Positions 2,421 through 55,467 of a stretch of DNA of 64,000 bases are shown here, in pieces (the stretch's first letter is position 1; every line of letters starts with the position of its first letter). The stretch is taken from positions 32,001-96,000 of the forward strand of contig CAWJZV010000024.1 of NCBI GenBank assembly GCA_963847445.1, given 5' to 3'. The stretch comes from an uncultured delta proteobacterium (GTDB lineage Bacteria > Desulfobacterota > Binatia > UBA9968). Position numbers and translations under genes: made by a program. The notes beneath the pieces are model-generated. The model searched no databases, was not told the origin of the DNA, and saw nothing but the letters and a program-made list of their open reading frames with translations.

Positions 2421-2430
2421 CCGCATGTCG

Positions 2431-7068: not shown

Positions 7069-7071
7069 AGA

Positions 7072-7151: not shown

Positions 7152-7153
7152 GT

Positions 7154-9909: not shown

Positions 9910-9936
9910 GGGCGTTGTTTGGATTCGGATTTCCTC

Positions 9937-12750: not shown

Positions 12751-12766
12751 TTTAAGGAGGTTGCAG

Positions 12767-16549: not shown

Positions 16550-16614
16550 GATGGCAAGTAAGGCAATCTGTCCAGGGGCCGATAGGCCGTGTCCCTGCAC
16601 TTCGGAGGTTTATC

Positions 16615-17326: not shown

Positions 17327-17527
17327 GATCGATCTGTTCAAGTCGTTCAAAAGGTTCAAACCGTTCAAACCGTTTCCGAAGATCTCGCAGTTTGCGAAAA
17401 CCTTTTCGAGGTGCCGTATCGACATTGCTCATGACGACCGGACGATTGACTGAAATGACTGCGATAAATTCGTTCATGCTGAGCGTGTCGAAGCATGCTC
17501 TGCACTTTGTTTCTCAGCTAGGATCTA

Positions 17528-27628: not shown

Positions 27629-27651
27629 CCTAATTGGGAATTGGGAGATTT

Positions 27652-35104: not shown

Positions 35105-36143
35105 ATGCTCAAGTGTTTCACTCTTGTCGCTTACATCTTACTTTCGCTGACTGCCGCGTCCGCCCAGACCCCGTATTTTCAGGGCAAGACGATCAAGATC
35201 GTTCGCGGCGGCGAGCCCGGCGGCACCGGTGACATGCAAGCGCGCGCAGTCATTCCCTTCTTGAAAAAACATATTCCCGGCAACCCGACGATCATCGTCG
35301 AAAACATGCCGGGTGCGGCGGGACGCAAAGCCGCCAACCATATTTACTCGACGGCGAAACCCGACGGGCTGTCGATCGGCGCGGTGGGCGCCGGCCTGGT
35401 CGCCGGTCAGATTCTTGAATTGGCCGGCTCGCAATACGACATCGAAAAGCTGATCTACTTGGGCTCCACCGAAAGCGGCGATCCCTACGTCTTCGTCGGC
35501 CGCAAGGACGCCGGTCTCGATACTCTCGATAAACTGCGCGCCGTCATCGGGGATCAGGATCGGCGCCCAAGCCGTGGGCCATCCGGTCTATGTCAGCGGC
35601 AGGCTGTTCGCCTATCTGCTCGGCTTGAAAGAACCGAGAATGGTGCTCGGTTACGGCGGTCCGGAAATGGACATTGCGATGGCGAAGGGAGAAATCGATG
35701 TGCGCGCCAATGGCGCGGATACGGTACTGCAGCGCAACAAAGAGCAGCTCGAAAAAGGCTTCTACCAATTTCACGCGTCGATCTCGATACCCAAGGGGCG
35801 CTACGCCGTCGGCCTGCCGAAAGCGCCGGAGTTGGAGAGCTTTGCCAAGAACGATCAAGAGCGCCAGCTGATCAATCTGTTTCGCACATTTCTCTATCCG
35901 CGCTGGCCCTATCTCTTGCCGCCGGCCACGCCCAAGGAAATCGTCGCGATCCTGCGCGGCGCCATGACCAAAGCGTTGAAAGATCCCGAGTTCCACAAAG
36001 AGTTCAAAAAACTCATGGCCACCGACGCCACGCCGCTCACCGGCGAGGAACTGGAAACCGCGATCAAAGAGCTGCCGCGCGATCCGGAAATCGTCGCGCT
36101 GTACAAAAAAATCGCCGATCAGGGGCCGCTTCCCGCGCGCTAA
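35105..36143 (+). CDS. TctC/Bug family substrate-binding protein (frameshift near 35543)
   Basis: MLKCFTLVAYIL signal peptide, KKHIPGNP..ENMPGAAG, second half in ORF 35574-36143 ending QGPLPAR. Confidence 0.85.
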
Positions 36144-36152
36144 AACAGAGGA

Positions 36153-36282
36153 GTTCAAAACGTTCAAACCGTTCAACGCTACGCTCCGTTCAATCCCTTC
36201 AACGCTCATGTTCCTCCCCCGCGACGCGGGGGAGGATCGAGGAGGGGGCTTGAGCGATTTGAACGGCTTGAACGTTTTGAAC
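36153..36282. repeat. GTTCAA/TTGAAC palindromic repeat
   Basis: gttcaaaacgttcaaaccgttcaac...cctcccccgcgacgcgggggagg...ttgaacggcttgaacgttttgaac. Confidence 0.85.
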
Positions 36283-36313
36283 GATACAGGCTTGATGTAA
36301 GAAGGAGGAGTTT

Positions 36314-37352
36314 ATGCTGAAACGCTTCACTCTCGTCGCTTACATTTTGTTCTCGGTAAATTCCGCGTCCGCCCAGACGCCCTTCTACCAGGGCAAAACC
36401 CTCACCATCGTTCAGGGCACGGAAGCGGGCGGCAGTTCCGACACTCAGACTCGCGCGCTGCTCCCCTATCTGAAAAAACATATTCCCGGCGAGCCCAACA
36501 TCGTCTCCGAGTACATGCCCGGTGGCGGCGGCATGAAAGCCGCCAATCATATTTTCAAGGGCGTCCGGCCCGATGGCTTGACCATCGGCCGCAGTCGGCG
36601 GCGGTCTGGTCGCCAATGCCGTCCTCGGCGAGAAGGGCGTGCTTGTACGATCTCAGCAAGTTTATTTATCTCGGTTCGCCGCACAGCACCTACCATTGGG
36701 TTTTCATCACGCGCAAAGAAGCGGGGCTGAAAAATATCGAAGCCCTGCGCTCGGCGACGGGAGTGAGAATCGGCGCGCAAACCGTCGGCCACTCAAACTA
36801 CTTCGTCGGCCGTTTGTTCGCGCATCTGATCGGCTTCAAAGATCCCAAAATGGTCGTCGGTTACTCCGGCACCGAGCTCGACATTGCGCTGATGAGCGGC
36901 GAGATCGACGGCCGGATCAACAATCCCGACACCTTGGCGATCCGCAACGCCGAGTGGCTCGCCAAAGGCATGATCGATATCCACGCGATCATGGAAGTGC
37001 CGCGCGGCCTCAAACAACCGGGCTTCGACCGCTTGCCCGAAATCGAAGAGTTCGCCAAATCGAGCGCGAGAAAAGGCTGCTGGCAATGGTGCGCGCTTTC
37101 CGGCAATTCGGCACGCCGTCATTCTTCCCGCCGGGCACGCCGCCGGAACCGGTAAAAATTCTTCGCGCCGCAACCGCGAAAATGTATAGCGATCCGGACT
37201 TTCACAAAGAGTACAAGAAACTGGTCGGTGAAGAGCCGACGCCGCTGTTGGGTGAAGATATGGAGCGCGTGATCAAAGAACTGCCACGCGACCCGGAGAC
37301 CGTCGAGCTGTTTAAGAAGCTCAACGCCGCCGGGCCAGTGCCGGCGCGCTAA
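36314..37352 (+). CDS. TctC/Bug family substrate-binding protein (about three frameshifts)
   Basis: MLKRFTLVAYIL signal peptide, KKHIPGEP, RPDGLT, RIGAQTVGH, ends AAGPVPAR. Confidence 0.82.
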
Positions 37353-37362
37353 CGCGCAAGCA

Positions 37363-37490
37363 GTTCAAAACGTTCAAGTCGTTCAACCGCTGCGCTCCGT
37401 TCAATCCCCCTCCTCCGATCCTCCCCCGTGACACGGGGGAGGATCAGAGGAGGGGGCTTGAGCGATTTGAACGGCTTGAACGATTTGAAC
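37363..37490. repeat. GTTCAA/TTGAAC palindromic repeat
   Basis: 128-bp imperfect palindrome with core gatcctcccccgtg-a-cacgggggaggatc. Confidence 0.85.
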
Positions 37491-37506
37491 GTGTTAAGGG
37501 GAAAAC

Positions 37507-38547
37507 ATGCTAAAGACATTCGCACTCGTAATTTTTATCTTATCGACGTTAAGCTCCGCCCACGCCCAGACGCCCTTTTATCAAGGCAAACATATTCTGC
37601 TCATCGTCGGCTCAGGCCCCGGCGGCATGGGCGACCTGCGCGCCAAGGCGCTGGCGGCGGGTTTGACGCGCCACATTCCCGGTAATCCGCCGATCGTTTT
37701 TCAGTACATGGGTGGCGCCGGCGGGCGCCGAGCGGCCAATCAAATCTACAATACCTCCAAGCCCGATGGGCTCACGCTGCTGCGCGTCACCAGCAGCATC
37801 ATTCCCTACGCCGTTCTCGGCGAGCCAGGTGTGCAGTACGACATCGATAAATTGAATTATCTCGGCGCCACCGAACATCAGTTGTATTATATGTTAGTCA
37901 CGCGCAAAGGCGCCGGCATCAATAGTTTGGAAAAACTCCGCAGCACACCCGGCATTCGCATCGGCAGCAGCCCGGTGGGCCACACCGGTTACTTGCAGAT
38001 CCGCATGCTCGCTTATCTGCTCGACATGAAAGATCCCAAAATCGTGCCCGGCTATGAAGGCAAAGATTTGGATGTCGCCATGGCCGCCGGCGAAGTCGAC
38101 GGTCGCATCGCTTCAACGGGGACGGTATCGCAAAACGACCTGTTATCGAAAAATCTCGCCGACTTTCACGTCGGCCTGGGAATACCGGCCAGCTACAAAG
38201 ACCCGCGCTTCGCACACCTGAAGCTGCCGGACCTCAGCAGCTTCGCCAAGTCGGAGAAGGAACGAAAACTCCTGACGATGGCGGAAGGCTTTCGCGTCGT
38301 CGGCACGATCCTCACCGCCCCGCCAGGGACGCCCAAAGAACGTCTCGACACTCTCAAAGAAGCCGTGCGCAAAACCTACGCCGATCCGCAGTTCGCCGCC
38401 GACTATAAACGCCTCACCGGCGGCGACGACCCATCGCCGCTACTGCCCGACGACCAAGCCAAAATCGTCCGCGGCATCCCGCGCGATCCGGAGATCATCG
38501 AGCTGTTCAAGAAATTCGCCTCGACGGCGGCGCTGCCGCCGCGCTGA
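37507..38547 (+). CDS. TctC/Bug family substrate-binding protein
   Basis: MLKTFALV signal peptide, AQTPFYQGK, RHIPGNP, KPDGLT, APPGTPKER. Confidence 0.88.
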   Translation: MLKTFALVIFILSTLSSAHAQTPFYQGKHILLIVGSGPGGMGDLRAKALAAGLTRHIPGNPPIVFQYMGGAGGRRAANQIYNTSKPDGLTLLRVTSSIIPYAVLGEPGVQYDIDKLNYLGATEHQLYYMLVTRKGAGINSLEKLRSTPGIRIGSSPVGHTGYLQIRMLAYLLDMKDPKIVPGYEGKDLDVAMAAGEVDGRIASTGTVSQNDLLSKNLADFHVGLGIPASYKDPRFAHLKLPDLSSFAKSEKERKLLTMAEGFRVVGTILTAPPGTPKERLDTLKEAVRKTYADPQFAADYKRLTGGDDPSPLLPDDQAKIVRGIPRDPEIIELFKKFASTAALPPR

Positions 38548-38667
38548 GGTGGCAGTTCAACGTCAAGCAGTTCAAAACCGTTTGAACGGAGCGGAGCGTC
38601 GGAATCTAAAGTCTCGACTCAAGATGTCAAGGAGGTAATTCATGACGCGAGGCATAAGGAACTTGCC

Positions 38668-39750
38668 ATGAAATTTGCAAGGTACACGCGGCTTAAAGGG
38701 TTTCTCGACCGCGTGCAGCGTTCTGCACGTTGAACTCTTGAACCCCTTGAACCTTGTCCGGGCGCCTTGGCGCAAGCGCCCTTCTACCAGGGTAAGACTA
38801 TTACCCTCATCGTCGGCTTGAGTCCGGGAGGCACTGGTGATTTGAGGATCAAAGCGACCTTGCCGTATCTGAGCAAGTATATTCCCGGCAATCCCAACAT
38901 CGTCGCGCAACATGTCGCCGGCGCTGGCGGCCGAACCGCGGCGAATCAGATGTACAAGCAGGTTAAGCCCGACGGTCTCACCATCGGCAATCCGGGCGCG
39001 TCGATGGTGACCAACGCCGTCCTCGGCGCCGCCGGGGTGGAATACGATGTCGATAAATTCATCTACCTCGGCTCCCCCGACACGATCGTCCACTGGGTGT
39101 TTGCGACCAGGAAAGAAGCCGGCCTCAACACAATCGAAAAACTCCGATCGGCGTCGGGCCTGAGGACCGGCGCTCAATCCATCGGCCATACGATCTACAT
39201 CACCGGCCGGCTTTTTGTCTGGATATTGGGAGTTAAAGAGCCGAAATTCGTCGTCGGCTATAGCGGCCCTGAGATCGACATCGCCCTATTGCGCGGCGAG
39301 GTCGATGCTCGAGCAAACTTAGCCGACACGCTCGTCCAGCGAAACGCCGATTGGTTGGACAAGGGTGTCGTCGACTTCCACAGTATTATCGATGTTCCCA
39401 AGGGAAATCGACACCCGCGTTTCGCCCACTTGCCTGAGCTCGAGGGATTTGCCAAATCGGATCGCGAGAGAAAAGTCCTGGCGATGCAGCGCGGCCTCAG
39501 ACAAGTAGGCTCACCTTACGTTTTCCCTCCCGGCGTGCCCAAGGATCGGGTAGAAATCTTGCGCAATGCGATGCGGAAAACTTTTGAGGACCCGGCGTTC
39601 CATAGCGATTTTAAAAAGCTCGCCGGTGAGCAGGCCACCCCGACCATGGCCGAAGAACAGGAGAAGGTCGTGCGGGAAATCCCGCGCGAGAGCGAGATCA
39701 TCGAGCTGTTCAAAAAAATTTCCGGCGAAGGACCGTTGCCGGGGCGATAG
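38668..39750 (+). CDS. TctC/Bug family substrate-binding protein (signal-peptide region frameshifted; start approximate)
   Basis: AQAPFYQGKTITLIVGLSPGG, KYIPGNP, KPDGLT, ends EGPLPGR. Confidence 0.82.
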
Positions 39751-39997
39751 ATTGAACAGGTTCAAAACGTTCCCTTCGGCGGGCTCAAGGCCTGAGTTTA
39801 TCGAAGGCAAGTCGTTCAAGCGCCGCTCAGTTCAGGCTCTCCGTGCAAAGCGGTAAAGCTGCCATTGCTTTGCAGCAATGAATCGGCATTCACCTTGCAG
39901 CTGGCATTGGCAGACATTTATATCGCTAAAGGTAGGTCTTTTATGCATGTAGGTTATGCCGATAGACCCGAGATTTCCCATGGTGTAAAGTCGCTGC

Positions 39998-40279
39998 ATG
40001 GCACTCGATTTCGAGTGGGATCCGGCTAAGGCTGAAGCCAACCTGAAAGAACATGGAGTCTCTTTCGACGAAGCGACGACAATTTTCCGTGACACGCTTT
40101 CAATTACCATCTCGGACCCGGATCACTCCGATTCTGAAGATCGCTTTATCGATATCGGCATGTCTCATCGTATGCAATTGCTCGTGGTGTCGTACACAGA
40201 ACGCCAAGATAAGATTCGAATCATAAGTGCACGACAACCAACTCGGGCTGAACGGAGAAGCTATGAAGAAACAAACTAG
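39998..40279 (+). CDS. brnT: BrnT-family toxin
   Basis: FEWDPAKAEANLKEHGVSFDEA...EDRFI.IG...IRIISAR. Confidence 0.9.
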   Translation: MALDFEWDPAKAEANLKEHGVSFDEATTIFRDTLSITISDPDHSDSEDRFIDIGMSHRMQLLVVSYTERQDKIRIISARQPTRAERRSYEETN

Positions 40280-40505
40280 ACGGAAGCCGTCGGCAAGCAG
40301 TGATACGATGCGTCCGGAATACGACTTCAGCAAAGGGGTGCGAGGTAAGCACGCCGCAAGTTACGCCGAAGGTACTAATGTGGTCGTTCTGGAAGCCGAC
40401 GTCGCACGCGAGTTCCGAACCACTGAGCAAGTGAACGAAACCCTGCGTGCAGTTTCAAAACTGCTTCAACTACGGCGAAAACCACCGCGCCGGACGACGG
40501 CCTAA
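40263..40505 (+). CDS. brnA: BrnA-like antitoxin
   Basis: Overlaps the brnT 3' end; MRPEYDFSKGVRGK...VVLEADVAREF...VNETLR. Confidence 0.85.
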   Translation: MKKQTRRKPSASSDTMRPEYDFSKGVRGKHAASYAEGTNVVVLEADVAREFRTTEQVNETLRAVSKLLQLRRKPPRRTTA

Positions 40506-40829
40506 CAAAGCGATGAATCCGGCGCCGCTGCCGAGCGCATCATGGGACTTCGCGTCGCATCTGCCATCATACTTGCGCTCTACTACCATATGGGGCTTAT
40601 GTTCTTTTTCGTCCCTCGTGATGCGAAACCGGCAGACTCGGCCAGCAAAGGGGTTCGCGACGTCTGACCCGCGGCTCAAGACTGATGTCGAAAGCGCTCG
40701 CCTTCCAGGCGCGCTTGTTCGCCACGGCTTAGCCGCATTGCGTTATCGATCCCATTCGCAAGCCCTGCTTGCATATTCCACCGCCCGCATCTCTACCCTC
40801 ATTCGCCGATAGATGATAGTTATCGCCTC

Positions 40830-42104
40830 ATGCGATTAGACCTTGGCTACATTCACATAAAGGACATTCGTTTCGGTGCGGGGACGTCGATTGAAAGCGG
40901 CGTACTGACAATCAACCGCGTGGAAATCATTTCTCTACTCGAACAAGAGCCGCTCTTCGAGCGCGTCGACATCGAACTCGCTCATCCCGGCGAATCCTGC
41001 CGAATCCTGCGCGTGCTCGACGTCCTCGAGCCGCGTTATCGCTTGAACGGTCCCAATTTTCCCGGCGCCCTCGACGGCAACGGTCTGGTCGGCGACGGCG
41101 CGACCCGCGCTTTGAAGAATGTCGCGGTGGTCGAAACCGATCAGACGGCGCCGCGCTCGCGCAACTTGATCGACATGAGCGGACCGGCGGCGGACTATTC
41201 GCCCATCGCCAATACCCACAACGTCGTCCTGCTGCCTTTTCCGAAAAAGGACGTCGATAAAAATGACTATCGTCTTGCCGTCAAGAAAGCCGGTCTCAAA
41301 ACTGCCGCCTATCTCGCCGCGGCGGCGAAGGATTTAAAACCTGACGAAACCCGGGTCTTCGAACTGCCGCCGGTGGCGGCGAATCAAGGGCCGAAGGATC
41401 TGCCGCGCATCGCCTACATCTTTCCGATGCACTCGCATCAGCATCCGACGCAGCAAAAAGAGACGGTCTTTTACGGCAGCAACATCCAGGGCTTCATGCC
41501 CACCGTGGTCCATCCCAATGAGATTCTCGACGGCGCGCTGATGTTTTCCTACTCGGCGTTTACCTGGTTTGCGCAGAATCATCCGGTGATCCTGGAGCTC
41601 TACCGCCGCCATGGCAAAGATCTCTGGTTCGCCGGCGTCGTCCTCACCGTCGCGCCCGCCGTGGTGTCTGAAAAGGAACGCAACGCTTTTCTCAATGCCC
41701 GGCTCGCCAAAGAAGTCTTGAACGCCGACGGCATCCTGTCGACGAAAATCGGCGGCGGCGCCGTCGACACCGATTTGATGATGACCTACACCCGCGCCGA
41801 GGAGATGGGCATGAAGGCCGCTCTGATCATCATGGAGCGCTACCCCGACACTGGCATCACTTTCGTGCCGGAGAATGTCAACGCGCTGATCACACCCGGC
41901 CTGACCCGCGACCCGATCACCCTGCCCGCCGTTGACCGCGTTATCGGCGGCGACACGCTGCACCTGGATAACTCGAACCCAGACAATACAAACCCCGGCC
42001 TTGTGCCGCTGCCGGCGAAGCAGGAGATTACCGTCTGGATGGGCGACCTGGTCGGCGCCATCAGTCAAACCGGCGCATCGCGACTGACGACGTATATGAG
42101 TTAA
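40830..42104 (+). CDS. Glycine/sarcosine/betaine reductase component B proprotein-like (GrdE/GrdI/PrdA family)
   Basis: MRLDLGYIHIKDIRFG, AHPGESCRI..VLDVLEPR, IDMSGP, HPNEILDGA, NHPVILELY, LPAVDRVIG; directly upstream of the grdB-like gene. Confidence 0.85.
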   Translation: MRLDLGYIHIKDIRFGAGTSIESGVLTINRVEIISLLEQEPLFERVDIELAHPGESCRILRVLDVLEPRYRLNGPNFPGALDGNGLVGDGATRALKNVAVVETDQTAPRSRNLIDMSGPAADYSPIANTHNVVLLPFPKKDVDKNDYRLAVKKAGLKTAAYLAAAAKDLKPDETRVFELPPVAANQGPKDLPRIAYIFPMHSHQHPTQQKETVFYGSNIQGFMPTVVHPNEILDGALMFSYSAFTWFAQNHPVILELYRRHGKDLWFAGVVLTVAPAVVSEKERNAFLNARLAKEVLNADGILSTKIGGGAVDTDLMMTYTRAEEMGMKAALIIMERYPDTGITFVPENVNALITPGLTRDPITLPAVDRVIGGDTLHLDNSNPDNTNPGLVPLPAKQEITVWMGDLVGAISQTGASRLTTYMS

Positions 42105-42220
42105 GAAAATGCTTCGGATTGTTCTCGCGCCAAGCGCGCCAAGTTCGGAACTTTTTTCTTTGCGTCCTTTGCGGTCTTTGCGCGAGATATTCCGGAATCC
42201 GTAGTTTGGGAGTCATTAAC

Positions 42221-43510
42221 ATGAGTACCAAGATCCGCGTCGTTCACTACTTGAATCAATTCTTCGCCCAGATCGGCGGCGAGGACAAAGGCGATGTCGG
42301 CCCAACCGTAAAAGCCGGGGTGATCGGCGCCGGCCGCGCGCTGCAGCAAGCGCTCGGCGAAGATGCCGAAGTGGTCGCGACGATTTATTGCGGCGACAAT
42401 TATTTCGCCGAGCATCAAAATCAGGTCGTCGCCGAACTGCTTCGGCGCACAGCGGAATTCACAGCCGATCTATTGATCGCCGGCCCGGCCTTCGAGAGCG
42501 GCCGCTACGGCGTGGCCTGCGGCGCTATTTGCCAAGCGGCGCAGCAAAAACTCGGTATCGCCAGCGTTGCCGGCATGGATGAAGACAACGTCGGCGCCGG
42601 CTTGTATCGCAAAAATATTTACATCGTCAACTCAGGCGCATCCATCGCGCGCATGGTGCCGACGCTGCAACGCATGGCAGCTTTGGGATTGAAACTGGCG
42701 CGCCGCGAAGCGATCGGCAAACCGGCGGACGAAGGCTACCTGTCACGCGGCATCAAGCGCAACGAATTCGCCGCCAAGCCGCCCGCCGAGCGCGCCGTCG
42801 ATATGTTGCTCGCCAAACTGGCCGGCAAAGAATTTCACTCCGAAATCGCCACGCCAAAATTCGCCGGTGGCAAACCGGCCGCGCCGCTGGGCGATTTGAA
42901 ATCAGCGGTGATCGCACTGGTCACCGACGGCGGGCTAGTGCTGGAAGGGAATCCGGATAAGATCGAGCCGGGACGGCCAACCCGCTTCACGACCATTCCG
43001 ATTCACAACGTCAACACGCTCGCCGCCGACAAGTACGACGCCGTCCATTCGGGCTACGACACCGCCAGCGCCAATCTAGACCCCAACCGACTGGTGCCGC
43101 TCGACACCATGCGCGAACTCGCCCGCGAGGGCGTCATCGGCAGCGTCCATGAATTCATTCACTCCACCGGCGGCGCCCACGCCGCGGTGGAGAACGCCGT
43201 GCAAATCGGCCGGCAGATCGCCGACCAGCTGAAAGCCGCCGGCGTCACCGGCGTGATCCTCACCTCCACTTGAGGCTCCAGCACTCGCTGCGGCGCAGCG
43301 ATCAGCAAGGAAATCGAAAAGCTGGAAATCCCGGTGACGCAGATCTGCACGATGATCCCGGTGGCCAAAGAAGTCGGCTCGCTGCGCGCCATCGCCGCCG
43401 GCGGCATCGTCAGCCCGACCGGCAATCCGGAACTATCGCCGGAAAAAGAAAAACAGTTCAGGCGGGACCTGGTGCTGCGCGCACTGGAGACACTGCAGCA
43501 AGAAGTGTGA
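42221..43510 (+). CDS. grdB: GrdB-family reductase selenoprotein B, 429 aa, Sec at codon 351
   Basis: RVVHYLNQFFAQIGGEDK, CGDNYF, AGPAF..GRYG.ACG, IALVTDGG, DPNRLVPLD. In-frame TGA at 43271-43273 in ILTST-U-GSSTRCGAAISKEIEKLEIPV...PTGNP...RALETLQQEV*. Confidence 0.92.
43285..43301 (+). promoter_or_regulatory. Putative bacterial SECIS element
   Basis: Perfect 7-bp stem TCGCTGC-[GGC]-GCAGCGA. The loop starts 18 nt after the UGA and begins with G. Confidence 0.7.
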
Positions 43511-43530
43511 TTAATCGTTGGGAGTATTTC

Positions 43531-43670
43531 TCGCAAAGGCGCCAAGACGCAAAGTTAAGTAAAGACATGTCATTGCGACCGAGGGGAGTAATCTCGCCCG
43601 AATCCGACAGGTCTCCTCCGGACTGACGGTCTTCGCCCGTCACTTTGCGCCTTAGCGCCTTTGCGAGATC
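43531..43670. repeat. CGCAAAG/CTTTGCG-family repeat
   Basis: tcgcaaaggcgccaagacgcaaag...gtcattgcgacc...ctttgcgccttagcgcctttgcgaga. Confidence 0.72.
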
Positions 43671-43711
43671 AATGTTCTCTCAGAATTCGACCATCGAACG
43701 TTGGAGTCACG

Positions 43712-44714
43712 ATGAACCTACCAACCCTGCTGCTCGTCATCGCGCTTAGTCTTAGCAGTCTACACTTCGCGCCTTCTTGCCGCCACCGTAGAAGACGATC
43801 ACATCGCCGGCGCCAAGAAAGAAGGCGCTCTCGTCCTCTATCTTTCCACCAATCTCGCCGATGCCAACGGTTTGGTCCAGCTCTACAAATCCAAGTATCC
43901 CTTCGTCAAGGTCGACATGTTCCGCGCCGACAACGAAAAACTGTTGAATCGCATCTTGACCGAATCGGCGGCCAACAAGTTCAACGGCGACGCGATTATG
44001 ATCAGCAGTTTCGAAGTCCGCGTGTTGTTGCAGAAAAAGCTCCTGCAACGCTACGTCTCGCCCCACGCCAAGTATTATCCAGAAGGATTCACCGACAAAG
44101 AAGGCTATTGGACCAGTGTCTACTCGATTCCCCGGGTTATCGCTTACAACACCAATCTCGCCAAGCCCGATGTCGCGCCGAAGAGTTGGGAAGACATCCT
44201 CCATCCGCGTTGGAGAGGCGGTTTTGGCCTGTCCGATAGCGCCACCCTCTGGTACACCGGCTTCATGAAATATCTCGGCGAAGAGAAAGGCCGCGACTTC
44301 ATGCGCAAGCTCGCCGCCCAGAAGCCGGCATTTCGCGACGGCGAAAGCATCGTCATGCAACTGCTCGCCGCCGGCGAGTTTCCTCTCGGCATGGTTTACT
44401 CGCACCAAGTGGCAACTCTGAAGCGGCGCGGCGCGCCAGTGGACTGGGTGCGCACCGCACAGCCCATCGTCACCGGCCTAAAACCTCTGGGCCTCAGTGC
44501 CAAGACGCAACATCCCAACGCGGCAAAATTATTCATCGACCTCACCCTCTCGAAGGAAGGCCAGGAGCTGATCAAGAGCTTCAACCGCATTCCCGACCGC
44601 GGCGACGTTACCTCCGAGCTAAAGGAAGGCCTCAAACTCTACCCTGCCGACCCGCGCTGGGGCGACAGCTATGCGAAACATGTGGAGGAATTTCGCGAGA
44701 TATTTTTCAAGTAA
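43712..44714 (+). CDS. Extracellular solute-binding protein (Fe3+/polyamine/thiamine-type), frameshift near 43770
   Basis: AKKEGALVLY, IAYNTNL, PKSWEDILHPRWRG, LLAAGEF, GAPVDW, HPNAAKLFID. Confidence 0.85.
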
Positions 44715-44774
44715 GCGCTACGGTTCCGGGAACTCCTGACCCCTTACCCTTCACCCCTAACGTTTAATAAGCGA

Positions 44775-44811
44775 GTAGCAATCCTGCTACGCCGAGTAGC
44801 AAAACGACTAC
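44775..44811. promoter_or_regulatory. Tandem palindromic operator/enhancer boxes
   Basis: GTAGCA-ATCC-TGCTAC (44775-44790) and GTAGCA-AAAC-GACTAC (44796-44811), 21-bp period. Confidence 0.55.
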
Positions 44812-44907
44812 GCCTAGCCTTCGCCACGGCAATTTCCCCACCCTGCCGGAACGTCAAGTTTCTCCATAATTTCAGAACCTTTCATTCGATACCACGCTGC
44901 CGCTCCG

Positions 44908-44924
44908 CTGGCATAACCCTTGTA
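44908..44924 (+). promoter_or_regulatory. Putative sigma54 (-24/-12) promoter
   Basis: CTGGCATAACCCTTGTA = GG-N10-GT variant of TGGCAC-N5-TTGC, about 100 bp downstream of the boxes and upstream of the 45011 gene. Confidence 0.45.
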
Positions 44925-45010
44925 ATGTAATTAGCAAGATCATCGTTGACAGGGAACCGCGATGATGGAACAAGATCGAGACAGTACGATCACAGCTTTT
45001 GGAGGAACCG

Positions 45011-45997
45011 ATGCTGGCAAAACTAACCGTGGCCATAGTCGCAGCTTTCGTTCTCACCCTCACCGCGTTCCCACCCAGCCAGGCGCAGCAGTTGGCAAAG
45101 ATGCCGAAGATTGGCTGGCTCGCGACCCGATCCGCCGCTTCTGGCACTGGGCTCGATAGATTGCGACGACATCTCCGGCCTCTGGGCTATATCGAGGGCA
45201 ATAACATCGACTTCGAGTATCGGTCGGCTGAGGATAACCTCGACCGGTTACCTGCACTCGCCGATGAATTAGTAAAACTTAAACTTGACGCGCTTGTCAC
45301 ACCATCGAGCGCTGAAACCCTAGCCGCAAAGAACGCTACCACGACGATCCCGATTATATGTTTGAACGTCGGGGATGCTGTTGCGCTGGGGCTGGTTGCG
45401 AGCTTCGCGAAGCCTGGCGGCAATATTACGGGCCTCACCAACTTCACAGATGTCCTCGCCGGCAAACGACTGGAGTTGCTCAAGGAAACTGTTCCCAAGC
45501 TGACCCGCGTTGCGGTGTTGTGGTATCCGCAAGATCCTGGTTCCACGCCGCAATGGAAAGAAAGCCAAGTGACTGCAGGAGAATTGGGCTTGCAACTCTA
45601 TTCTATGGAGGTCACCAGTAGCGACAAATACGAGAGCGCATTCAGAGACGCAATCAAGGCTCGAAGTGCTGCGGTCGCAGTTACGCCGGGACCGTTGAGC
45701 ATTTCTCACCAAAAACGGATTGCGGATCTCGCGATAAAAAATCGGTTGCCGATAATGACCCCTCGCGCGGATTTAGCCGAGAGCGGCGGCTTAATTTCAT
45801 ATGGACCCGACCGCGATGAACACTACAGGCGTGCTGCTTCGATGGTGGACAAAATTTTGAAGGGCTCAAAGCCCGCTGACCTACCTGTTGAACGGCCAAT
45901 GAAGTTTGAGTTTGTCGTCAATCTGAAAACCGCAAAGCAGATCGGTCTGACGATTCCGCCGAATGTGCTGGTGCGGGCTGATCGGGTGATTAAGTAG
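45011..45997 (+). CDS. ABC transporter substrate-binding protein (ABC_sub_bind-type)
   Basis: RBS GGAGG; MPKIGWL, LGYIEGNNI, ATTTIPII, GLVASFAKPGGNITG, KRLELLKE, GGLISYG, KILKG.KPADLPVERP.KFEFVVNLKTAK. Confidence 0.9.
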   Translation: MLAKLTVAIVAAFVLTLTAFPPSQAQQLAKMPKIGWLATRSAASGTGLDRLRRHLRPLGYIEGNNIDFEYRSAEDNLDRLPALADELVKLKLDALVTPSSAETLAAKNATTTIPIICLNVGDAVALGLVASFAKPGGNITGLTNFTDVLAGKRLELLKETVPKLTRVAVLWYPQDPGSTPQWKESQVTAGELGLQLYSMEVTSSDKYESAFRDAIKARSAAVAVTPGPLSISHQKRIADLAIKNRLPIMTPRADLAESGGLISYGPDRDEHYRRAASMVDKILKGSKPADLPVERPMKFEFVVNLKTAKQIGLTIPPNVLVRADRVIK

Positions 45998-46089
45998 GGC
46001 AAAAGTAAAAGTGAAAAAGGCCACCGGGAAATTCTAAAATACGAAGAGACAATGCAGATAAACGAATAAGCGGTTAGGGTACGACGTCT

Positions 46090-46554
46090 TCAGCGCGAAA
46101 TAAATTCGGATGGGACGAGCACCTCGAAAGCGTCGATTTTCTTCAGACGCTTGTCATTGGTGATGAAAAGCGTCGCTTCGCCTCGGATCGCCGCGGCGAC
46201 TTGCAAAGCATCGGGCAGACGGATGCCGTGGCGCGCCCGCACCAGGGCCGCGGCTTCGGCAAGCTTCTCGTCAATGGCCAACATGGTGAGCGTGGAGAAA
46301 GATTTCAAGGTGAATTTGATTTCATCGACGAGGGCGTACTTTTTTTCCACCAGAGGTTTTGCCAAAATTTCCGCCAGCGTGATGGTTGATGTGACGGCGT
46401 GCAAGCGATGGTTGGCCAAAAGTTCGAACACGGGTTCGAGAAGATCCGCGTAGGGCGCAACATCTTCGATAAAATAGATCAACGGCGCGGTATCGAGCCC
46501 GACGATCCGATGCTTTTCTATAGTTCGGCGAAAGTTAAGCGCGTTGCCATTCAT
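46090..46554 (-). CDS. vapC: VapC/PIN domain toxin
   Basis: GLDTAPLIYFIE, TSTITLAE, LPDALQVAAA, FITNDKRL. Confidence 0.88.
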   Translation of the reverse strand: MNGNALNFRRTIEKHRIVGLDTAPLIYFIEDVAPYADLLEPVFELLANHRLHAVTSTITLAEILAKPLVEKKYALVDEIKFTLKSFSTLTMLAIDEKLAEAAALVRARHGIRLPDALQVAAAIRGEATLFITNDKRLKKIDAFEVLVPSEFISR

Positions 46555-46780
46555 CGCGGAGTTTGTCGAGGTAGGCGTCGATCTTGGTGCGATCGCCCCA
46601 GGCGCCTTTACCGATACCGCGCAACCGGGCCGCCGGGTTCTTGGGTTTCGGCCGCAGGATTATTCTGTCGCTCTCTACCACCGCGGCTAATTGATCGCCG
46701 GGTTTTAGTCCCAAGGCCTGTCGCATCTGCTTGGAAATTACGATTTGTGACTTTTCGTTAAGTTTTAGCACTATTTCCAT
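46535..46780 (-). CDS. AbrB/MazE-family antitoxin
   Basis: KLNEKSQIVISKQMRQALGLKPGDQL...IILRP; overlaps the PIN gene start. Confidence 0.85.
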   Translation of the reverse strand: MEIVLKLNEKSQIVISKQMRQALGLKPGDQLAAVVESDRIILRPKPKNPAARLRGIGKGAWGDRTKIDAYLDKLRDEWQRA

Positions 46781-46894
46781 CTTTGTCACCCATTTTAATG
46801 GTTTCGGGTAAAATTAGCAGATATGGGCTACTTTAGCAATTTGTCAGCGGGAGAACGGTAAGGAGGCTCGTAGGTCCGAGAAGATTGGGTGGCG

Positions 46895-46965
46895 ATTAAC
46901 TTGAAAACGACAAAGCAGATCGGCGTGGCGATCCTGTTCCAGCGCAACTGACCGCGCCGGACTGA
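46895..46965 (+). pseudogene. Degenerate 3' end of an ABC_sub_bind-type SBP
   Basis: Encodes INLKTTKQIGVAI, compared with [13 protein letters not shown] at the end of 45011-45997. Confidence 0.6.
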
Positions 46966-47053
46966 ATTTAACAATTGCGCCGAGAACTTCGCCGCCGTAT
47001 AGTCGCGCTGTTCGTGTGGACCGGTCTTAGCATCCTATACATGAGGTGCGACA

Positions 47054-48742
47054 ATGTATGACTTGATTCTCAAAGGCGGGCGGATTTACGACGGCTCGGG
47101 GTTGCCGTCGTTCAATGGCGACGTGGCCATTCGCGACGGCAAAATTGCCGCCATCGGTAGAATCAACGAAGCAGCGGAGCGCGTGCTCGACGTTGGCGGC
47201 CTGGCGGTCGCGCCCGGGGTCATCGATTTTCACACTCACTTCGACGCCCAGCTTTGGTGGGACCCGCTCGCTTCATCATCGAATGAACATGGCGTCACCA
47301 CCGTGGTCACCGGCAACTGCGGCTTGACGCTGGCGCCGTGCAAACCGGAGAGCCGAGATGCCTTGATCGGCACTTTCGTGCGCGTCGAAGCGATGCCGCG
47401 GGCGAGCCTGCAAGCGGGCATTCCCTGGCAGTGGACGACACATGCGGAATATCTCAACGCGCTCGAGCGCCAGCCGCTCGGCTTGAACGTCGCGACGCTC
47501 ATCGGTCACTGCGCCGTGCGCCAACATGCCATGGGCGAAGCCAGCGTCGAGCGCGAAGCCAAGGACAGCGAAATCGCCGAGATGGAGGAATCGGTCCGCC
47601 AAGCTATGGCGGCTGGCGCCTTCGGGTTTTCGACGAACTCGAACCAAAGCCACTATCGCGAAGACGGCAAGCCGGTGGCAAGCCGATTCTCCAGCTTGGA
47701 AGAAATCGCCCGCCTGTGCCGCGTCGTCGGCGAGTCCCAGCGCGGCTTGGTGCAATTCACCCATGGCGCCTTCGCCACGCCGGAGCATGTCGCGCACATC
47801 AGCCAATGGTACGACACGATTTTACAGGAAACCCGCCGGCCGTTGATCGGTGAAAGCATCCGCCACCGTTGGAGCGAACCCGAGCTATGGCGCAAACAGT
47901 TGCACGACGTCGAAGCGCGTGCCCGTCAGGGCTACGCCGCCTACGCCATGACCAGCACGCGCCGATCAATGCGCCGCTGGACGCTCAAAGACGGCGCTCG
48001 TCTCGATATCATCCCGGCGTGGAAAAAACTTTCGGCGTTGCCGATCGCCAAACGAATGGAGAAACTGCGCGATGCCGCCGTGCGCGCGGAACTGGCGGAA
48101 GAAACCGTCGATGGAAAACCGATAGATTTCTCGCGCCGCTGGGATTTGATCGGCGTCAATAAAGCAGCGCGCAAAGAAAATCAAAGTCTCGAAGCCAAAA
48201 GCATCGCGGAGATCGCCACCGCGCAGCATAAGTCACCCATCGATGCCATGCTCGATCTCGCCCTGGCGGAAGACTTGGAAACCACTTTCGAAGATTCGAC
48301 GACCCAGGGCGACGAGCAAGCGGTCAAAGAAATCTTCTGCAACCCCAACGTCCTGCTCGGCCAGTCCGACGCCGGTGCCCATGTCGCCAGCGGCAATCCC
48401 GGTTTCGGTTACGCAACCTTGATGCTCGCCTATTGGGTGCGCGAGCGAAAGCTCATGACACTCGAAGACGCCATCAAGAAACTGACGTTCTTGCCGGCGT
48501 CGATCTTCGGCATCCACGACCGCGGCCTGCTGCGCCGCGGCCTTGCCGCCGACATATTTGTCTTCGATCCTGAGAGGATAGACTTAGCCACGCCGGCAAA
48601 AGTCAATGATCTCCCCGAAGGCGCGCCTCGTTTCGTTCAAGGCGCCAAGGGAATTCATTACACGATTGTTAACGGCAAAGTGCTCATGGATAACGGCGCT
48701 CACACTGGCGCCTATCCCGGAAGAGTACTGCGGAGTTCGTGA
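47054..48742 (+). CDS. N-acyl-D-amino-acid deacylase family amidohydrolase
   Basis: DLILKGGRIYDGSG, APGVIDFHTHFDAQ, GVTTVVTGNCG, SDAGAH, DRGLLRRG.AADI, TIVNG. Confidence 0.9.
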   Translation: MYDLILKGGRIYDGSGLPSFNGDVAIRDGKIAAIGRINEAAERVLDVGGLAVAPGVIDFHTHFDAQLWWDPLASSSNEHGVTTVVTGNCGLTLAPCKPESRDALIGTFVRVEAMPRASLQAGIPWQWTTHAEYLNALERQPLGLNVATLIGHCAVRQHAMGEASVEREAKDSEIAEMEESVRQAMAAGAFGFSTNSNQSHYREDGKPVASRFSSLEEIARLCRVVGESQRGLVQFTHGAFATPEHVAHISQWYDTILQETRRPLIGESIRHRWSEPELWRKQLHDVEARARQGYAAYAMTSTRRSMRRWTLKDGARLDIIPAWKKLSALPIAKRMEKLRDAAVRAELAEETVDGKPIDFSRRWDLIGVNKAARKENQSLEAKSIAEIATAQHKSPIDAMLDLALAEDLETTFEDSTTQGDEQAVKEIFCNPNVLLGQSDAGAHVASGNPGFGYATLMLAYWVRERKLMTLEDAIKKLTFLPASIFGIHDRGLLRRGLAADIFVFDPERIDLATPAKVNDLPEGAPRFVQGAKGIHYTIVNGKVLMDNGAHTGAYPGRVLRSS

Positions 48743-48759
48743 ACACGAATATAATTTTC

Positions 48760-48900
48760 TCGCAAAGGCGCAAAGACGCCAAGGCGACGGGCGATGCCCG
48801 TCATCCCGAGGGAACACGAGGGATCTAAGAAAGATTTCTCCCAGGGGTCGAAATGACAACAATTCCGAACTTAGCGCCTTTGCGAGAGACATTCCGAATT
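48760..48900. repeat. CGCAAAG/CTTTGCG-family repeat
   Basis: Closely matches 9937-10072 (gtcatcccgag...ggatctaagaaagatttctc...gtcgaaatgac...attccgaacttagcg). Confidence 0.8.
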
Positions 48901-48921: not shown

Positions 48922-49923
48922 TCAGCGCAGCCCAAAAATCTCTTTCCACAACTTCTCATACTTCGGATAATCTTTGATGTCGTCTTCGCCCACCGGGTAA
49001 ACTTTCGCCGGCCGGGTTTTTTCCGTCGGCTCGACTTTCGGATGGGCCGGCAATCTGCCGCCAAGAGCGTAGATTTTTTGGCCTTCTTCGCTCGCCGACC
49101 AGCGGGCGAACAACAGTGCGGTATTGGGATGCGGTGCACTTTTCATAATCGCCGTGGCGTCGATGTCGCCGGTGCCCTCGGTCAGCATATAGTCCACCGG
49201 CGCGCCTTTGCGTTTGCGCACCGGATAATGGTGCGAATAGCAGGTCAAACAGGCGGCGGCCTGTCCGGCGACCAACAGTTCGGCCAACTGCGAATGGCCT
49301 TTGTGAAATTCCAGATTGTTGGCGGCGATGCGCTTGAGCAGCGCCACGGCCTTGTCGTCGTTTTTGTATTTGTGCTTGGCCAGGCCGAGCAGCAATTGGA
49401 AATCTCGCGGCTCGGCGATCAAACGATTTTTCCAACGCGGATCGGCGAAATCTTCGAACTGCTTGGGCTCTTCGTCTTTTTTTACCTTCGAGGTATTCCA
49501 AGCCGGCACGATGTAAATCAAGTCGGTGGCGAGCCACCCGGTGCCTTTGAGTTCATCCGGATAGGCAGCCGCTTCCGGGTAGAGTCGGTCGAGAAACAAT
49601 CCTTGGCCTTGGACCCGCATGAGGCCGTCCAGCAAAGTTTGAAAAACATCGGCGAGGATCCGTCCGCCGCGCGATTCCGCGATGATCCGCGTCGCCAACT
49701 GATCCGACGTCGCGTCCACATGGTTCACTTTGATACCGGGAAAACGCTTCTCGAACGCCGGCAAAATGATCTCGGCATTGACCTGCGCCAAGGTGGCGTA
49801 AAAATTCAGCGTGCCGCCTTCGGTGAGCGCCCGCTTATAAACTTCGTCGATAGTTTGCGCCTGAAGGGAGACCACACCGCACATTGACAGCGTTAAGGCT
49901 AAGAGAAACTTTCCACTTTTCAT
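48922..49923 (-). CDS. Extracellular solute-binding protein (Fe3+/polyamine-type)
   Basis: FEKRFPGIKV, AWNT, FEDFADPRWK, LLVAGQ, GAPVDY, APHPNTALLF. Confidence 0.85.
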   Translation of the reverse strand: MKSGKFLLALTLSMCGVVSLQAQTIDEVYKRALTEGGTLNFYATLAQVNAEIILPAFEKRFPGIKVNHVDATSDQLATRIIAESRGGRILADVFQTLLDGLMRVQGQGLFLDRLYPEAAAYPDELKGTGWLATDLIYIVPAWNTSKVKKDEEPKQFEDFADPRWKNRLIAEPRDFQLLLGLAKHKYKNDDKAVALLKRIAANNLEFHKGHSQLAELLVAGQAAACLTCYSHHYPVRKRKGAPVDYMLTEGTGDIDATAIMKSAPHPNTALLFARWSASEEGQKIYALGGRLPAHPKVEPTEKTRPAKVYPVGEDDIKDYPKYEKLWKEIFGLR

Positions 49924-53030: not shown

Positions 53031-54058
53031 CTAATAGTCCAAAAATCTCCCGGAACTCTTTGATCGATGGCGTTGAACTGGGCGCCGGTTTCCACCGGAT
53101 TGGTGACCAGTTTCAATTTCGATTGCTCCATGCGCGGCGAGAACGGTTCGATATCCGGCCGCGCCGGGATGCGCCGCAGCGTGCGCAAGCCGCTGCTGGG
53201 CCGGTCTCGACAAGAGAAAGTCGACGAACAAGCGGGCGACGTTGGGATGTTGCGGTTTGTTGCTGATTCCCGCCGAGTTGAGGGTGACCACCAAGGGGTT
53301 CACCGTATTCACCCACTCGATCGGCGCGCCGCGGGTTTTCATCTCTTCGGTGCGGTGCGCATAGACCACGCCGAGCGGGAACTCGCCGGCGGACATCAGC
53401 TGGGCGATCAAGGTATGCCCCTTGCGCCATTGAATGTCCTGTTTAGCGATCGCCCGCATATATTTCTGCGCCCGTTCGCGCCCCCAGGCTTTGTGCAGAG
53501 TGCCGAACCAGGAGTACTGCTCTTGGTCGATGGAAATCTTACCTTTCCATTTCGCATCGAGCAGATCTTCCCACTGCTTGGGCGCTTCCTTCTCGCTCAC
53601 CAGTTTGGTGTTGTAGCCGATGGTCGCGTAGTTGACATAGACGGCGGTCCAATAACCGTTGGCATCTTTGAATTCCGGAATATAACGTCCTGGCTTCCGG
53701 CGAACGGTAAGTCATGAGCAACTTGGCATCGGTGAGCGCATCCACTTCGCTGATCGTCACGACATCGAAATCCCAGCGGCCGGCCCGGCCTTCGGTGACG
53801 ATCCGGTTCAGCGTCTTCTCGCCGCTGGCGCGAATGATCTCGCCTTTGATGCCGTAGGCCTTTTCGAAATCGTCGAGCAGCGGTTTCGACTCGGTGATGT
53901 TAGTCGACGTGTACCAAACCAGTTTGCCTTCCTTCTTCGCCGCCTCGACCATCTTCGCGCGCTCGTCGCTCTGGCTCCACGCCAAGCTCGCCGCATACCA
54001 ACAGGATAATTGCCGCTAGGCCGATCTGCAAAAACCTGCTGCCAGTTACTGTCATCAT
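53031..54058 (-). CDS. Extracellular solute-binding protein (Fe3+/polyamine-type), several frameshifts
   Basis: AAKKEGKLVWYTS, PKQWEDLLDAKWKG, LMSAGEF, GAPIEW, HPNVARLFVDF. Confidence 0.8.
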
Positions 54059-54254
54059 ATATTCTCCCTTCCTTAGATGGTTCGCCGATTTGCGCCCACT
54101 GGCGCAAGCTGCGGCGAAGTATAAGGCAAGGATTGCGAAGTCAATTTGGTCAGTGGCAGGGTTGCCAAAGCGACTTGGGTTAGAAACTTTCCGGGCGGCT
54201 CATGCCTGCAGCTTCAAATCCTGGCAAAATCAAGCGCGTGGCGACGACGCTGAT

Positions 54255-55241: not shown

Positions 55242-55271
55242 ATGGGTTCTACCAAGACTCGGAGATTCCTC

Positions 55272-55460
55272 CCGCAAAGGCGCAAAGACGCCAAGTTCGG
55301 AATCGTTGTCATTTCGACCTCGCAATCGGCGACTCCGGAAGATCTCTCGCTAGATCCCTCGCCTCGCTCGGGATAACGGAGATCCCGTCACCTTTGCGCC
55401 TTCGCGCCTTTGCGGAAATAATCTGAATCTATTTTGCGGACTTTGCGTTCTTTGCGGCTA
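55272..55460. repeat. CGCAAAG/CTTTGCG-family repeat
   Basis: cgcaaaggcgcaaagacgccaagttcggaa...gtcatttcgacc...ctttgcgccttcgcgcctttgcgga. Confidence 0.75.
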
Positions 55461-55467
55461 ATTCCCG

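Follow-up and report, generated by a model that had tools for sequence, protein, structure and literature searches.

The protein-B-type reductases described in the literature consulted here have glycine, sarcosine, betaine, D-proline or fluoroacetate as their substrates, and all of them are found in anaerobes. In the GrdE and GrdG proproteins, a cut at an Asn-Cys site yields a pyruvoyl group. The family is far wider than the described enzymes, as a search of representative proteins returned 1559 clusters at E ≤ 0.001, of which 287 had E ≤ 1e-30. Here, we describe a gene pair of this family, encoding a GrdE-like subunit and a GrdB-like selenoprotein, in a stretch of 64,000 nucleotides (hereafter, the window; G+C content of 57.7%) from an uncultured delta proteobacterium of the GTDB lineage Binatia (GenBank assembly GCA_963847445.1, contig CAWJZV010000024.1, positions 32,001 to 96,000). 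Its two most informative features are a GrdE-like subunit that has lost the cleavage site and a GrdB-like subunit with a UxxSxxC motif (U, selenocysteine, Sec); both were absent from the preliminary description of this locus.

The three co-oriented genes listed in that description were confirmed at 40830–44714, all on the forward strand: the GrdE-like gene at 40830–42104, the GrdB-like gene with Sec at 42221–43510, and a gene for a periplasmic solute-binding protein at 43712–44714. The GrdE-like product, 424 amino acids (aa) long, matches PF09338 over residues 1–420 (E=6.5e-96, 321.8 bits). The GrdB-like product consists of 429 aa plus the stop, includes Sec351, Ser354, and Cys357, and matches PF07355 (E=3.4e-126, 421.7 bits with a cut-off of 22) and TIGR01918 (462.4 bits, above the cut-off of 65.45). 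Its gene starts with ATG at 42221, with GGGAG located 8 nucleotides (nt) upstream, and ends with the true stop codon TGA at 43508–43510, the second TGA in frame. An alternative start, TTG at 42119, was rejected, as the 34 residues that it would add before the ATG derive from a repeat and lie outside the profile match, which begins at residue 38. Both reductase genes are intact in the window. A search of the PDB found no chain at E ≤ 1 for the GrdB-like protein and only a chance match (E=0.65) for the GrdE-like protein. A scan of 39700–47100 gave no clear excess of signals over shuffled sequences, with two promoter-like signals versus 3.3 and 12 terminator-like signals versus 9.9, and did not delimit the operon.

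A word-indexed protein search for relatives of the GrdB-like protein revealed 7620 homologues at E ≤ 0.001 among 7999 candidates scored, and the best 120 of these 7620 are 79–99% identical to the window protein. The few named homologues among the best 120 come from metagenome-assembled genomes (MAGs) of Deltaproteobacteria or Candidatus Binatia, and public records annotate these genes generically. A scan of genome contigs identified 19 loci (L001–L019), 16 of which (L001–L015 and L018) belong to the clade of the window protein, with 66–96% identity, while L016, L017, and L019 fall outside it. The clade loci are labelled as MAGs of Candidatus Binatia, "uncultured delta proteobacterium", Syntrophobacter sp. 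or Thermodesulfobacteriota. The gene pair is present in 16 other species-level MAGs. In all 13 clade loci with upstream sequence available, the GrdE-like gene directly precedes the GrdB-like gene. The pair belongs to a separate, tightly conserved branch that occurs in Binatia-type soil and sediment MAGs.

Comparison of these loci indicates that the in-frame UGA of the GrdB-like gene (43271–43273, forward strand) is translated as selenocysteine. Neither the TGA codon nor the surrounding motif TSTUGSSTRCG varies between the window and the 16 related loci. In 10 pairwise comparisons, the ratio of nonsynonymous to synonymous substitution rates (dN/dS) was 0.03–0.13 for the 78 codons after the UGA and 0.09–0.16 for the 350 codons before it; the codons 3' of the UGA are therefore under purifying selection, which means that the UGA is read as Sec. 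The best 120 database homologues all cover just 81–82% of the GrdB-like query, presumably because gene callers stop at the UGA. A hairpin resembling a selenocysteine insertion sequence (SECIS), with a 6–7 bp stem and a GGC loop, is located at 43285–43301 on the same strand and begins 14 nt past the first base of the UGA; the same position is occupied by hairpins in Peptoclostridium acidaminophilum grdF, Enterococcus gilvus grdH, and the grdB genes of Acetoanaerobium and Photobacterium. The window gene thus has both a translated UGA at the conserved ST-U-G position and a downstream hairpin, like other members of the family. At the third pair of the stem, the 12 distinct rows from the window clade have C-G and the six others U-A, and 95.2% of the hairpin cells are paired, as compared to 17.5–70.6% after sliding the pairing by 1–3 columns. 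This covariation probably reflects one evolutionary event, and the stem also overlaps conserved codons, so that it provides modest evidence for Sec. The Rfam model SECIS_4 scored below threshold at the hairpin (20.3 bits versus 38, E=0.57), and no Rfam family matched anywhere in the window at gathering thresholds.

The cleavage site is lost in the GrdE-like subunit. In the alignment, reference GrdE and GrdG sequences have ..DGAI.SGNCV..CDK.. at this site, while the window clade has ..DGALMFSYSA------FTW.., with a six-residue deletion and with neither Asn nor Cys. The equivalent region of the window gene (41544–41567, forward strand) encodes FSYSAFTW, a stretch that the window and all 13 loci compared have in common, save for F or Y at one position. 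The subunit therefore matches the profile of the PF09338 proproteins but lacks their Asn/Thr-Cys cleavage site. E. gilvus GrdI has SGSFMPC at this position, and a partner subunit without a cysteinolysis site is the mark of the betaine-type enzymes, which the window pair shares at the level of sequence. FarE and GrdI were reported to lack the cysteines and not to be proproteins, and the CxxC of FarB to be altered or lacking (PMC10838667). In the D-proline reductase subunit PrdA, the C421S and C421A variants were reported to stay unprocessed even in the presence of the helper PrdH (PMC11229817).

The GrdB-like subunit is changed at the Sec motif itself. It reads U-G-S-S-T-R-C, with the proximal Cys replaced by Ser and the distal Cys kept, in the window and in all 16 loci, none of which has the UxxC redox motif; UxxCxxC is named as the GrdB motif in a review (PMC13188914). 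Cys357 and the STUG context are conserved with the references. Elsewhere in the alignment, the window clade has GPAFESGRYG for the reference GPxF[NF]AGRYG, IEPGRPTR for IESSSA[ST]K, HSG for HGG, and TGGAHA for T.G[NT]GT, and the reference C-terminal tail ..E[ED]QTVF.. is missing. Residue motifs separating GrdB from GrdF were published by Nobu et al., namely AHGGxD[QTAP]..RV[IL]PxD..TxGNxTxV for GrdB and IHGGYDR..TTGTGT for GrdF (PMC9751293). A script scan found neither motif in the window protein or in three other clade members, while the controls gave the expected result, with the GrdB motif present in the A. noterae and Photobacterium GrdB and the GrdF motif in the P. acidaminophilum GrdF.

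Similarly, none of the profiles specific for known enzymes reached its cut-off. The GrdB-like protein scored 416.9 bits against the TIGR01917 equivalog for GrdB (cut-off 602.2), 475.2 bits against sarcosine GrdF (NF040794; 800), 415.1 bits against betaine GrdH (NF040795; 775), and 78.1 bits against D-proline PrdB (TIGR04483; 300), the last match being limited to residues 258–438. For the GrdE-like protein, the scores were 258.8 bits against GrdG (NF040793; cut-off 780) and 240.1 bits against FarE (NF053623; 675).

A phylogenetic tree of 88 rows was constructed with FastTree. It includes the 87 of 150 listed representatives that are at least 330 aa long, minus eight badly aligned or aberrant ones (P0152, P0184, P0196, P0199, P0221, P0259, P0260, and P0270), together with the window protein, four proteins from the loci, and four reference enzymes. 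The four reference enzymes, representing GrdB, GrdF, and GrdH, appear together in one group of 12 rows (support 90), while the window protein groups with L013 and P0124 (support 100) in the remaining 76 rows, beside P0125 and P0126 (85). The clade is thus not nested within the reference enzymes, although the tree says little beyond that. By every test applied, namely the cut-offs, the motifs, and the tree position, the pair falls outside the glycine, sarcosine, and betaine reductases.

The three loci outside the clade differ from the window in several respects. L016 and L017, both from Bacilliculturomica massiliensis (41–42% identity), are paralogous pairs in which the Asn-Cys site and UxxCxxC are both intact; neither pair reaches any equivalog cut-off, and each is located behind a PrdR-like sigma-54 regulator; no grdA, grdC or grdD was found within 10 kb of either. 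They were considered as possible canonical operons and rejected as such, being uncharacterised pairs with PrdR-like regulators and without grdA, grdC, and grdD. In L019, from a groundwater MAG (36%), the gene order at 2278–5368 is reversed: a solute-binding gene of the SsuA/TauA family is followed, after 40 nt, by the GrdB-like and then by the GrdE-like gene. The Sec motif of this locus, U-G-T-C-T-R-S (UxxCxxS), has lost the distal Cys, which is the opposite of the window clade. In other clades, single-chain fusions of GrdE-like and GrdB-like proteins of 770–800 aa occur (P0146, P0155, P0168, and P0205), and the cleavage region of fused representatives, where it could be located, varies, with SGDSW in P0146, YTGSN in P0168, and also GGYTG.

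In the canonical systems, the B component works with other proteins, which were sought around the pair. A Pfam scan of 86 open reading frames of the window (all of at least 80 aa of the greedy call, except for 34 aa at 4096–4200) gave no match to GrdA, GrdC/D-type proteins or thioredoxin. A tblastn search (E ≤ 1e-3) with two GrdA sequences, GrdC, GrdD, and thioredoxin found nothing in the window or in L001–L019, while the same queries recovered all four control loci (L020–L023). Only the TrxB query gave matches, to a thioredoxin reductase (TrxR)-like gene at 1180–2304 and its orthologue in L004. Neither the window nor any of the 19 loci therefore has the grdA, grdC, grdD, and trxA/trxB genes of a complete complex with or near the B component, and about 300 kb of flanking DNA was surveyed across the related species in all. 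The reference operons, taken from plasmid and chromid records, have the order grdG-grdF-BCCT-M24 peptidase-grdA in P. acidaminophilum (L020) and trxB-trx-grdA-grdC-grdD-grdI-grdH-BCCT in E. gilvus (pCR1A, L021), while L022 (Acetoanaerobium noterae) and L023 (Photobacterium sp.) are unannotated canonical operons. In P. acidaminophilum, grdA is 3 kb away from grdG-grdF, and no grdC or grdD is present within 12 kb. The earlier observation that no grdA, grdC, grdD or thioredoxin gene is adjacent thus stands for the window and extends to the 16 clade loci. The "orphan" status derived from it is valid locally; the characterised P. acidaminophilum, too, keeps its B genes apart from grdC and grdD.

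As the pair fails the cut-offs, motifs, and tree placement of the known enzymes and has no A, C or thioredoxin genes nearby, its substrate likely differs from glycine, sarcosine, and betaine. The proposal of a component B acting on a different substrate, made in the preliminary description, is supported by the cut-offs, the motifs with their controls, and the tree.

Members of the family that operate independently of protein A probably exist, because selenoproteins of pfam07355 far outnumber GrdA in the oxic ocean. The Global Ocean Sampling (GOS) data contained 235 "PrdB" and five GrdB selenoproteins of pfam07355 versus one GrdA (PMC2398784, Table 2), and the Sargasso Sea data 42 and one, respectively, versus one GrdA (PMC1088965). 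The Binatota, to which the host lineage corresponds, were described as aerobic methylotrophs and alkane degraders, and the words "selen", glycine, trimethylamine, and thioredoxin are absent from the main text of that genome survey (PMC8262859). The grdH gene was undetected according to a sponge paper (PMC9999580). Our search of the literature revealed nothing linking Binatota with glycine reductase or Binatia with selenocysteine, and, supplements aside, no description of a clade that combines the loss of the cleavage site with UxxSxxC and with changed residues at the substrate motifs; the full COG1978 tree of PMC9751293 (Supplementary Fig. S6) may be relevant to where the clade is placed.

In the reading that we prefer, and to which we give about an even chance of being right, the locus encodes a two-subunit, Sec-containing, non-pyruvoyl reductase of the protein B type, the substrate of which needs no Schiff base and the product of which is released independently of proteins A and C. 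The GrdE-like subunit would stay uncleaved and carry no pyruvoyl group, as reported for GrdI and FarE. Without a carbonyl, no Schiff base can be formed, and the substrate must therefore already bear a good leaving group; it would be a carboxylate with such a group on the alpha-carbon, perhaps a quaternary (betaine-type) amine. Sec351 would attack the alpha-carbon and expel the leaving group, yielding a selenoether. To complete the reaction, a release like that of D-proline reductase, which dispenses with proteins A and C, is favoured: Cys357 would resolve the selenoether, the free acid would depart, and the Se-S bond would then be reduced by a thioredoxin-type system that the locus does not specify. 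Alternatively, the selenoether could be handed over to GrdA and then to GrdC/D, as in betaine and fluoroacetate reduction. The internal route is favoured because none of the 17 loci contains A or C genes, the clade lacks the C-terminal tail of the A-coupled references, its host lineage is reportedly aerobic, and GrdA is scarce in the oxic ocean.

Several points weigh against this reading. The absence of grdA, grdC, and grdD covers the window and the 16 related loci and not the rest of the genome, and both known non-pyruvoyl enzymes, those for betaine and fluoroacetate, were described as using proteins A and C (PMC10838667). The tree was built with FastTree alone and rooted at the midpoint, and many of its deep forks have support below 80. 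None of the 30 representatives scored with NCBIfam reached an equivalog cut-off, but the representatives end at the Sec codon, which lowers their scores. With identities of 31% to GrdI and 35% to GrdG, the GrdE-like protein does not resemble GrdI more than GrdG. In the alignment, the gap of which is uncertain by a residue or two, the cleavage Cys is matched by a Ser, and pyruvoyl formation from serine is therefore possible. Finally, a "betaine-type" substrate is a guess from the absent cleavage site.

The strongest competing explanation, less probable but still a real possibility, is that the pair is a further protein B with its own substrate specificity, the selenoether of which passes to an ordinary set of GrdA, GrdC/D, and thioredoxin encoded at another place in the genome. 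In Peptoclostridium and Cloacibacillus, several B components supply a single A/C system in this manner. The B genes are likewise located apart from grdC and grdD in P. acidaminophilum and from grdA, grdC, and grdD in both Bacilliculturomica loci, and Cys357 and the STUG context are conserved. The betaine and fluoroacetate reductases, the precedents for non-pyruvoyl enzymes, were also described as taking this route (PMC10838667). However, neither the window nor the roughly 300 kb of DNA flanking the 16 related loci contains any of the required genes, and the clade lacks the C-terminal tail of the A-coupled references. The description of the host lineage as aerobic, in a survey whose main text does not mention glycine, selen- or thioredoxin (PMC8262859), and the near absence of GrdA where PF07355 selenoproteins abound also argue against sharing of an A/C system.

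It is also conceivable, but unlikely, that the GrdE-like subunit processes itself through one of the serines of FSYSA and that the enzyme deaminates a primary or secondary amine. Most pyruvoyl enzymes make the pyruvoyl group from serine, and in this clade a Ser aligns with the cleavage Cys within the invariant FSYSAFTW. The substrate could then be, for example, a D-amino acid released by the product of the amidohydrolase gene at 47054–48742 (forward strand, 562 aa, PF07969), the nearest solved structure of which is the D-aminoacylase 1m7j (E=3.2e-40). This gene is the most frequent neighbour of the pair, being located downstream in 8 of 15 loci; it follows the GrdB-like gene immediately in L004, and a 26-aa remnant of it is present in L011. 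By analogy with the P. acidaminophilum sarcosine operon, in which a hydrolase of the M24 family and a transporter are located beside grdF, it is conceivable that the amidohydrolase releases a precursor of the substrate. Shared synteny is weak evidence, because the related loci are close kin, and the invariance of the motif says little in a protein that is highly conserved throughout. Moreover, the conserved Asn, the second Cys, and six residues are gone from the site, and a Cys-to-Ser change left PrdA unprocessed (C421S; PMC11229817).

Even less support was found for a dedicated electron route in which a UGSC-family selenoprotein and a TrxR-like flavoprotein, encoded at 1180–4095, replace protein A and thioredoxin. 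The UGSC gene (2431–4095, reverse strand) encodes a 554-aa fusion protein with Sec at codon 104 (3784–3786) in the motif HUSTC. The N-terminal domain of the read-through protein matches PF24696 (82.1 bits, cut-off 25), while its score against NF041046 is 54.2 bits (cut-off 125). The 365-aa C-terminal domain has no Pfam match; its nearest clusters in the Atlas are free-standing hypothetical proteins (scores of 0.95–0.96, with recognition just under the benchmark), and one lower-ranked cluster has UGSC in 16% of its members. A UGSC domain fused to "Unknown_1" was described in 2008 (PMC2398784, Fig. S1 of which may bear on the fusion). The adjoining TrxR-like gene (1180–2304, reverse strand) scored 282 bits against TIGR01292 (cut-off 343), compared to 320 for its L004 orthologue; its C-terminus is out of frame near 1500, and the tblastn match splits over two frames.

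The two genes are adjacent in both the window and L004. L004 has the UGSC fusion (78% identity) and the TrxR-like gene (71%) upstream of the GrdE-like gene and on its strand, at a distance of about 5 kb that is occupied by a TctC gene and a restriction-modification pair. In the GOS data, UGSC and the pfam07355 "PrdB" also rank together among the selenoproteins of highest abundance in the same samples (PMC2398784). However, this proximity is found in one of the 16 clade loci, or one of the seven with 10 kb on both sides, and in the window the two genes lie 37 kb from the reductase on the opposite strand; among loci so closely related, a shared neighbourhood is not independent evidence. Since the Sec redox domain is fused to a catalytic-looking domain of its own and followed by its own reductase, UGSC probably serves that domain, and the two genes look like a self-contained unit. 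The suggestion that the locus at 1380–4095 takes the place of protein A is thus weakly supported and, in our view, quite improbable. The most elaborate combination, a Binatia selenoenzyme that dispenses with both the pyruvoyl group and proteins A and C, reductively cleaves a new carbon–heteroatom bond (e.g., in a quaternary amine), and is recycled by a dedicated TrxR-like/UGSC relay, appears less probable still. A decaying remnant or an assembly artefact can be practically dismissed: several window genes, including the solute-binding and TrxR-like ones, are frameshifted, but the reductase genes are intact, have low dN/dS values on both sides of the UGA, and occur as the same pair in the other species-level MAGs.

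The solute-binding gene downstream of the pair (PF13343/PF13416, SBP_bac_6/8 type) is an inconstant neighbour. An orthologue follows the GrdB-like gene in five of 15 loci with downstream sequence (L001, L006, L007, L014, and L015), and remnants are present in L003 and L012. In the window, the signal peptide (ATG at 43712) is out of frame with the mature domain, and comparison with L006 revealed one extra base near 43765–43770, which is a frameshift or an assembly error. The nearest solved structures are iron-, pyridoxal-phosphate-, and sugar-phosphate-binding proteins. The protein was therefore rejected as a clue to the substrate, being inconstant, frameshifted, encoded beyond a repeat, and similar to binders of iron and phosphate esters; the gene is probably a bystander.

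The repeat that separates the two genes (43529–43668, 27-nt inverted ends, no strand assigned) is one copy of a dispersed palindromic element of about 140 bp found in spacers at 9935–10062, 12556–12569, 43529–43668, 48758–48887, and 55270–55417; a related repeat-like spacer lies at 42119–42200. The inverted ends begin TCTCGCAAAGGCGC, and the window contains 11 matches to the end motif versus 1.67 expected. The intergenic copy 3' of the GrdB-like gene folds with −77.9 kcal/mol (z=−4.8). The element looks like a miniature inverted-repeat transposable element (MITE) or a repetitive extragenic palindromic (REP)-type repeat rather than a part of the enzyme.

Several other genes of the window are split or change frame: the C-terminus of the TrxR-like gene (1400–1510), an Amidohydro_2 gene (12761–13806), the N- and C-terminal halves of a mandelate racemase gene (25609–26677), the solute-binding gene (43765–43770), a further solute-binding gene (53031–53985), and an NMT1-type one (55468–56411). 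The same splitting is seen in the related loci L003, L007, L014, and L015 and fits either indel errors of long-read assembly or real pseudogenes.

The window is rich in solute-binding genes of the TctC/Bug, NMT1, ABC_sub_bind, and SBP_bac_6/8 types, located at 4439–9909, 15485–18526, 22204–23025, 35105–39750, 44999–45997, 48922–49923, 53031–56411, and 61749–62564. Transporter partners in the window are limited to two TctA/TctB pairs, with no ABC permease or ATPase; tandem ABC_sub_bind arrays of up to about eight genes occur in the related loci. A PIN-domain toxin and a MazE/AbrB-type antitoxin (46090–46789, reverse strand) are encoded between the solute-binding genes and the amidohydrolase gene; L007 also has both genes and L003 only the one for the PIN protein, and the pair looks like an insertion into the conserved neighbourhood.

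The O2-dependent dioxygenases mentioned previously among the surrounding genes correspond to dioxygenase-family genes that are indeed present: two bicupins (27634–28749 and 57219–58175) and a glyoxalase-fold protein (62656–63492). The bicupin score as a gentisate/5-aminosalicylate 1,2-dioxygenase-like protein is 281 bits, under the cut-off of 650. A gene for a redoxin-fold protein (56490–57203, reverse strand; AhpC/TSA and Redoxin, with 59 bits against the iodothyronine-deiodinase model NF038285, below its cut-off) has a bicupin dioxygenase-like gene next to it and is also conserved close to the L004 reductase (17400–18125, reverse strand). The radical S-adenosylmethionine (SAM) gene at 23635–24966 (reverse strand), for which the best NCBIfam matches are B12-binding radical SAM families, is located beside a TctABC cluster and has no evident link to the reductase.

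The Binatia clade appears to be a good entry point into the uncharacterised part of the family: it is abundant in public metagenomes, tightly conserved, belongs to a reportedly aerobic lineage, and is changed at both catalytic hot spots. It is a good target for biochemistry. The substrate, once found, would add a new Sec-dependent reaction to soil carbon or nitrogen cycling and would be a first step towards explaining the abundance of PF07355 selenoproteins in places with little GrdA, a puzzle that dates from the ocean surveys of 2005–2008.

Compared to protein B of the glycine and sarcosine reductases (P. acidaminophilum L020 and A. noterae L022), the window pair has the same two Pfam families, the same gene order, and the same Sec position and distance to the hairpin, with B-subunit identities of 41–44%. 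It differs in the loss of the cleavage site, in UxxSxxC, in the altered motifs, and in the absence of the ..QTVF.. tail. Betaine reductase GrdH/GrdI of E. gilvus is likewise composed of a GrdB-family selenoprotein and a GrdE-family partner without the Asn-Cys site, and GrdH shares the STUG context and the distal Cys with the window protein. However, identity to the window proteins is 38% for GrdH and 31% for GrdI, the tree group is different, GrdH has UxxCxxC rather than UxxSxxC, and the E. gilvus operon includes trxB, trx, grdA, grdC, grdD, and a BCCT transporter, none of which is found near the window clade.

Fluoroacetate reductase FarE/FarB of Cloacibacillus porcorum MFA1 is similar in having an E-like subunit reported to lack the processing cysteines and, by description alone, in the altered CxxC of FarB, and it shows that the family cleaves bonds besides C–N (PMC10838667). 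Unlike it, the window pair has no adjoining radical SAM or antiporter gene, and its FarE score is far below the cut-off (240 versus 675). D-proline reductase PrdA/PrdB belongs to the same superfamily, is not coupled to substrate-level phosphorylation (PMC13188914), and provides the model for release without proteins A and C, although PrdA needs Cys and the helper PrdH for the pyruvoyl group (PMC11229817).

The pfam07355 selenoproteins of the oxic ocean (Zhang and Gladyshev 2005, 2008) resemble the window clade, by counts, in being abundant where GrdA is almost absent; they too have no assigned function, but they were counted under the UxxC motif, which the clade lacks. In view of these reports of PF07355 selenoproteins in great excess over GrdA in oxic seawater, calling the window pair an "undescribed system" was too strong. 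Non-pyruvoyl enzymes of the B type (GrdI and FarE) were already known, as were, since 2005–2008, GrdA-less PF07355 selenoproteins in oxic waters.

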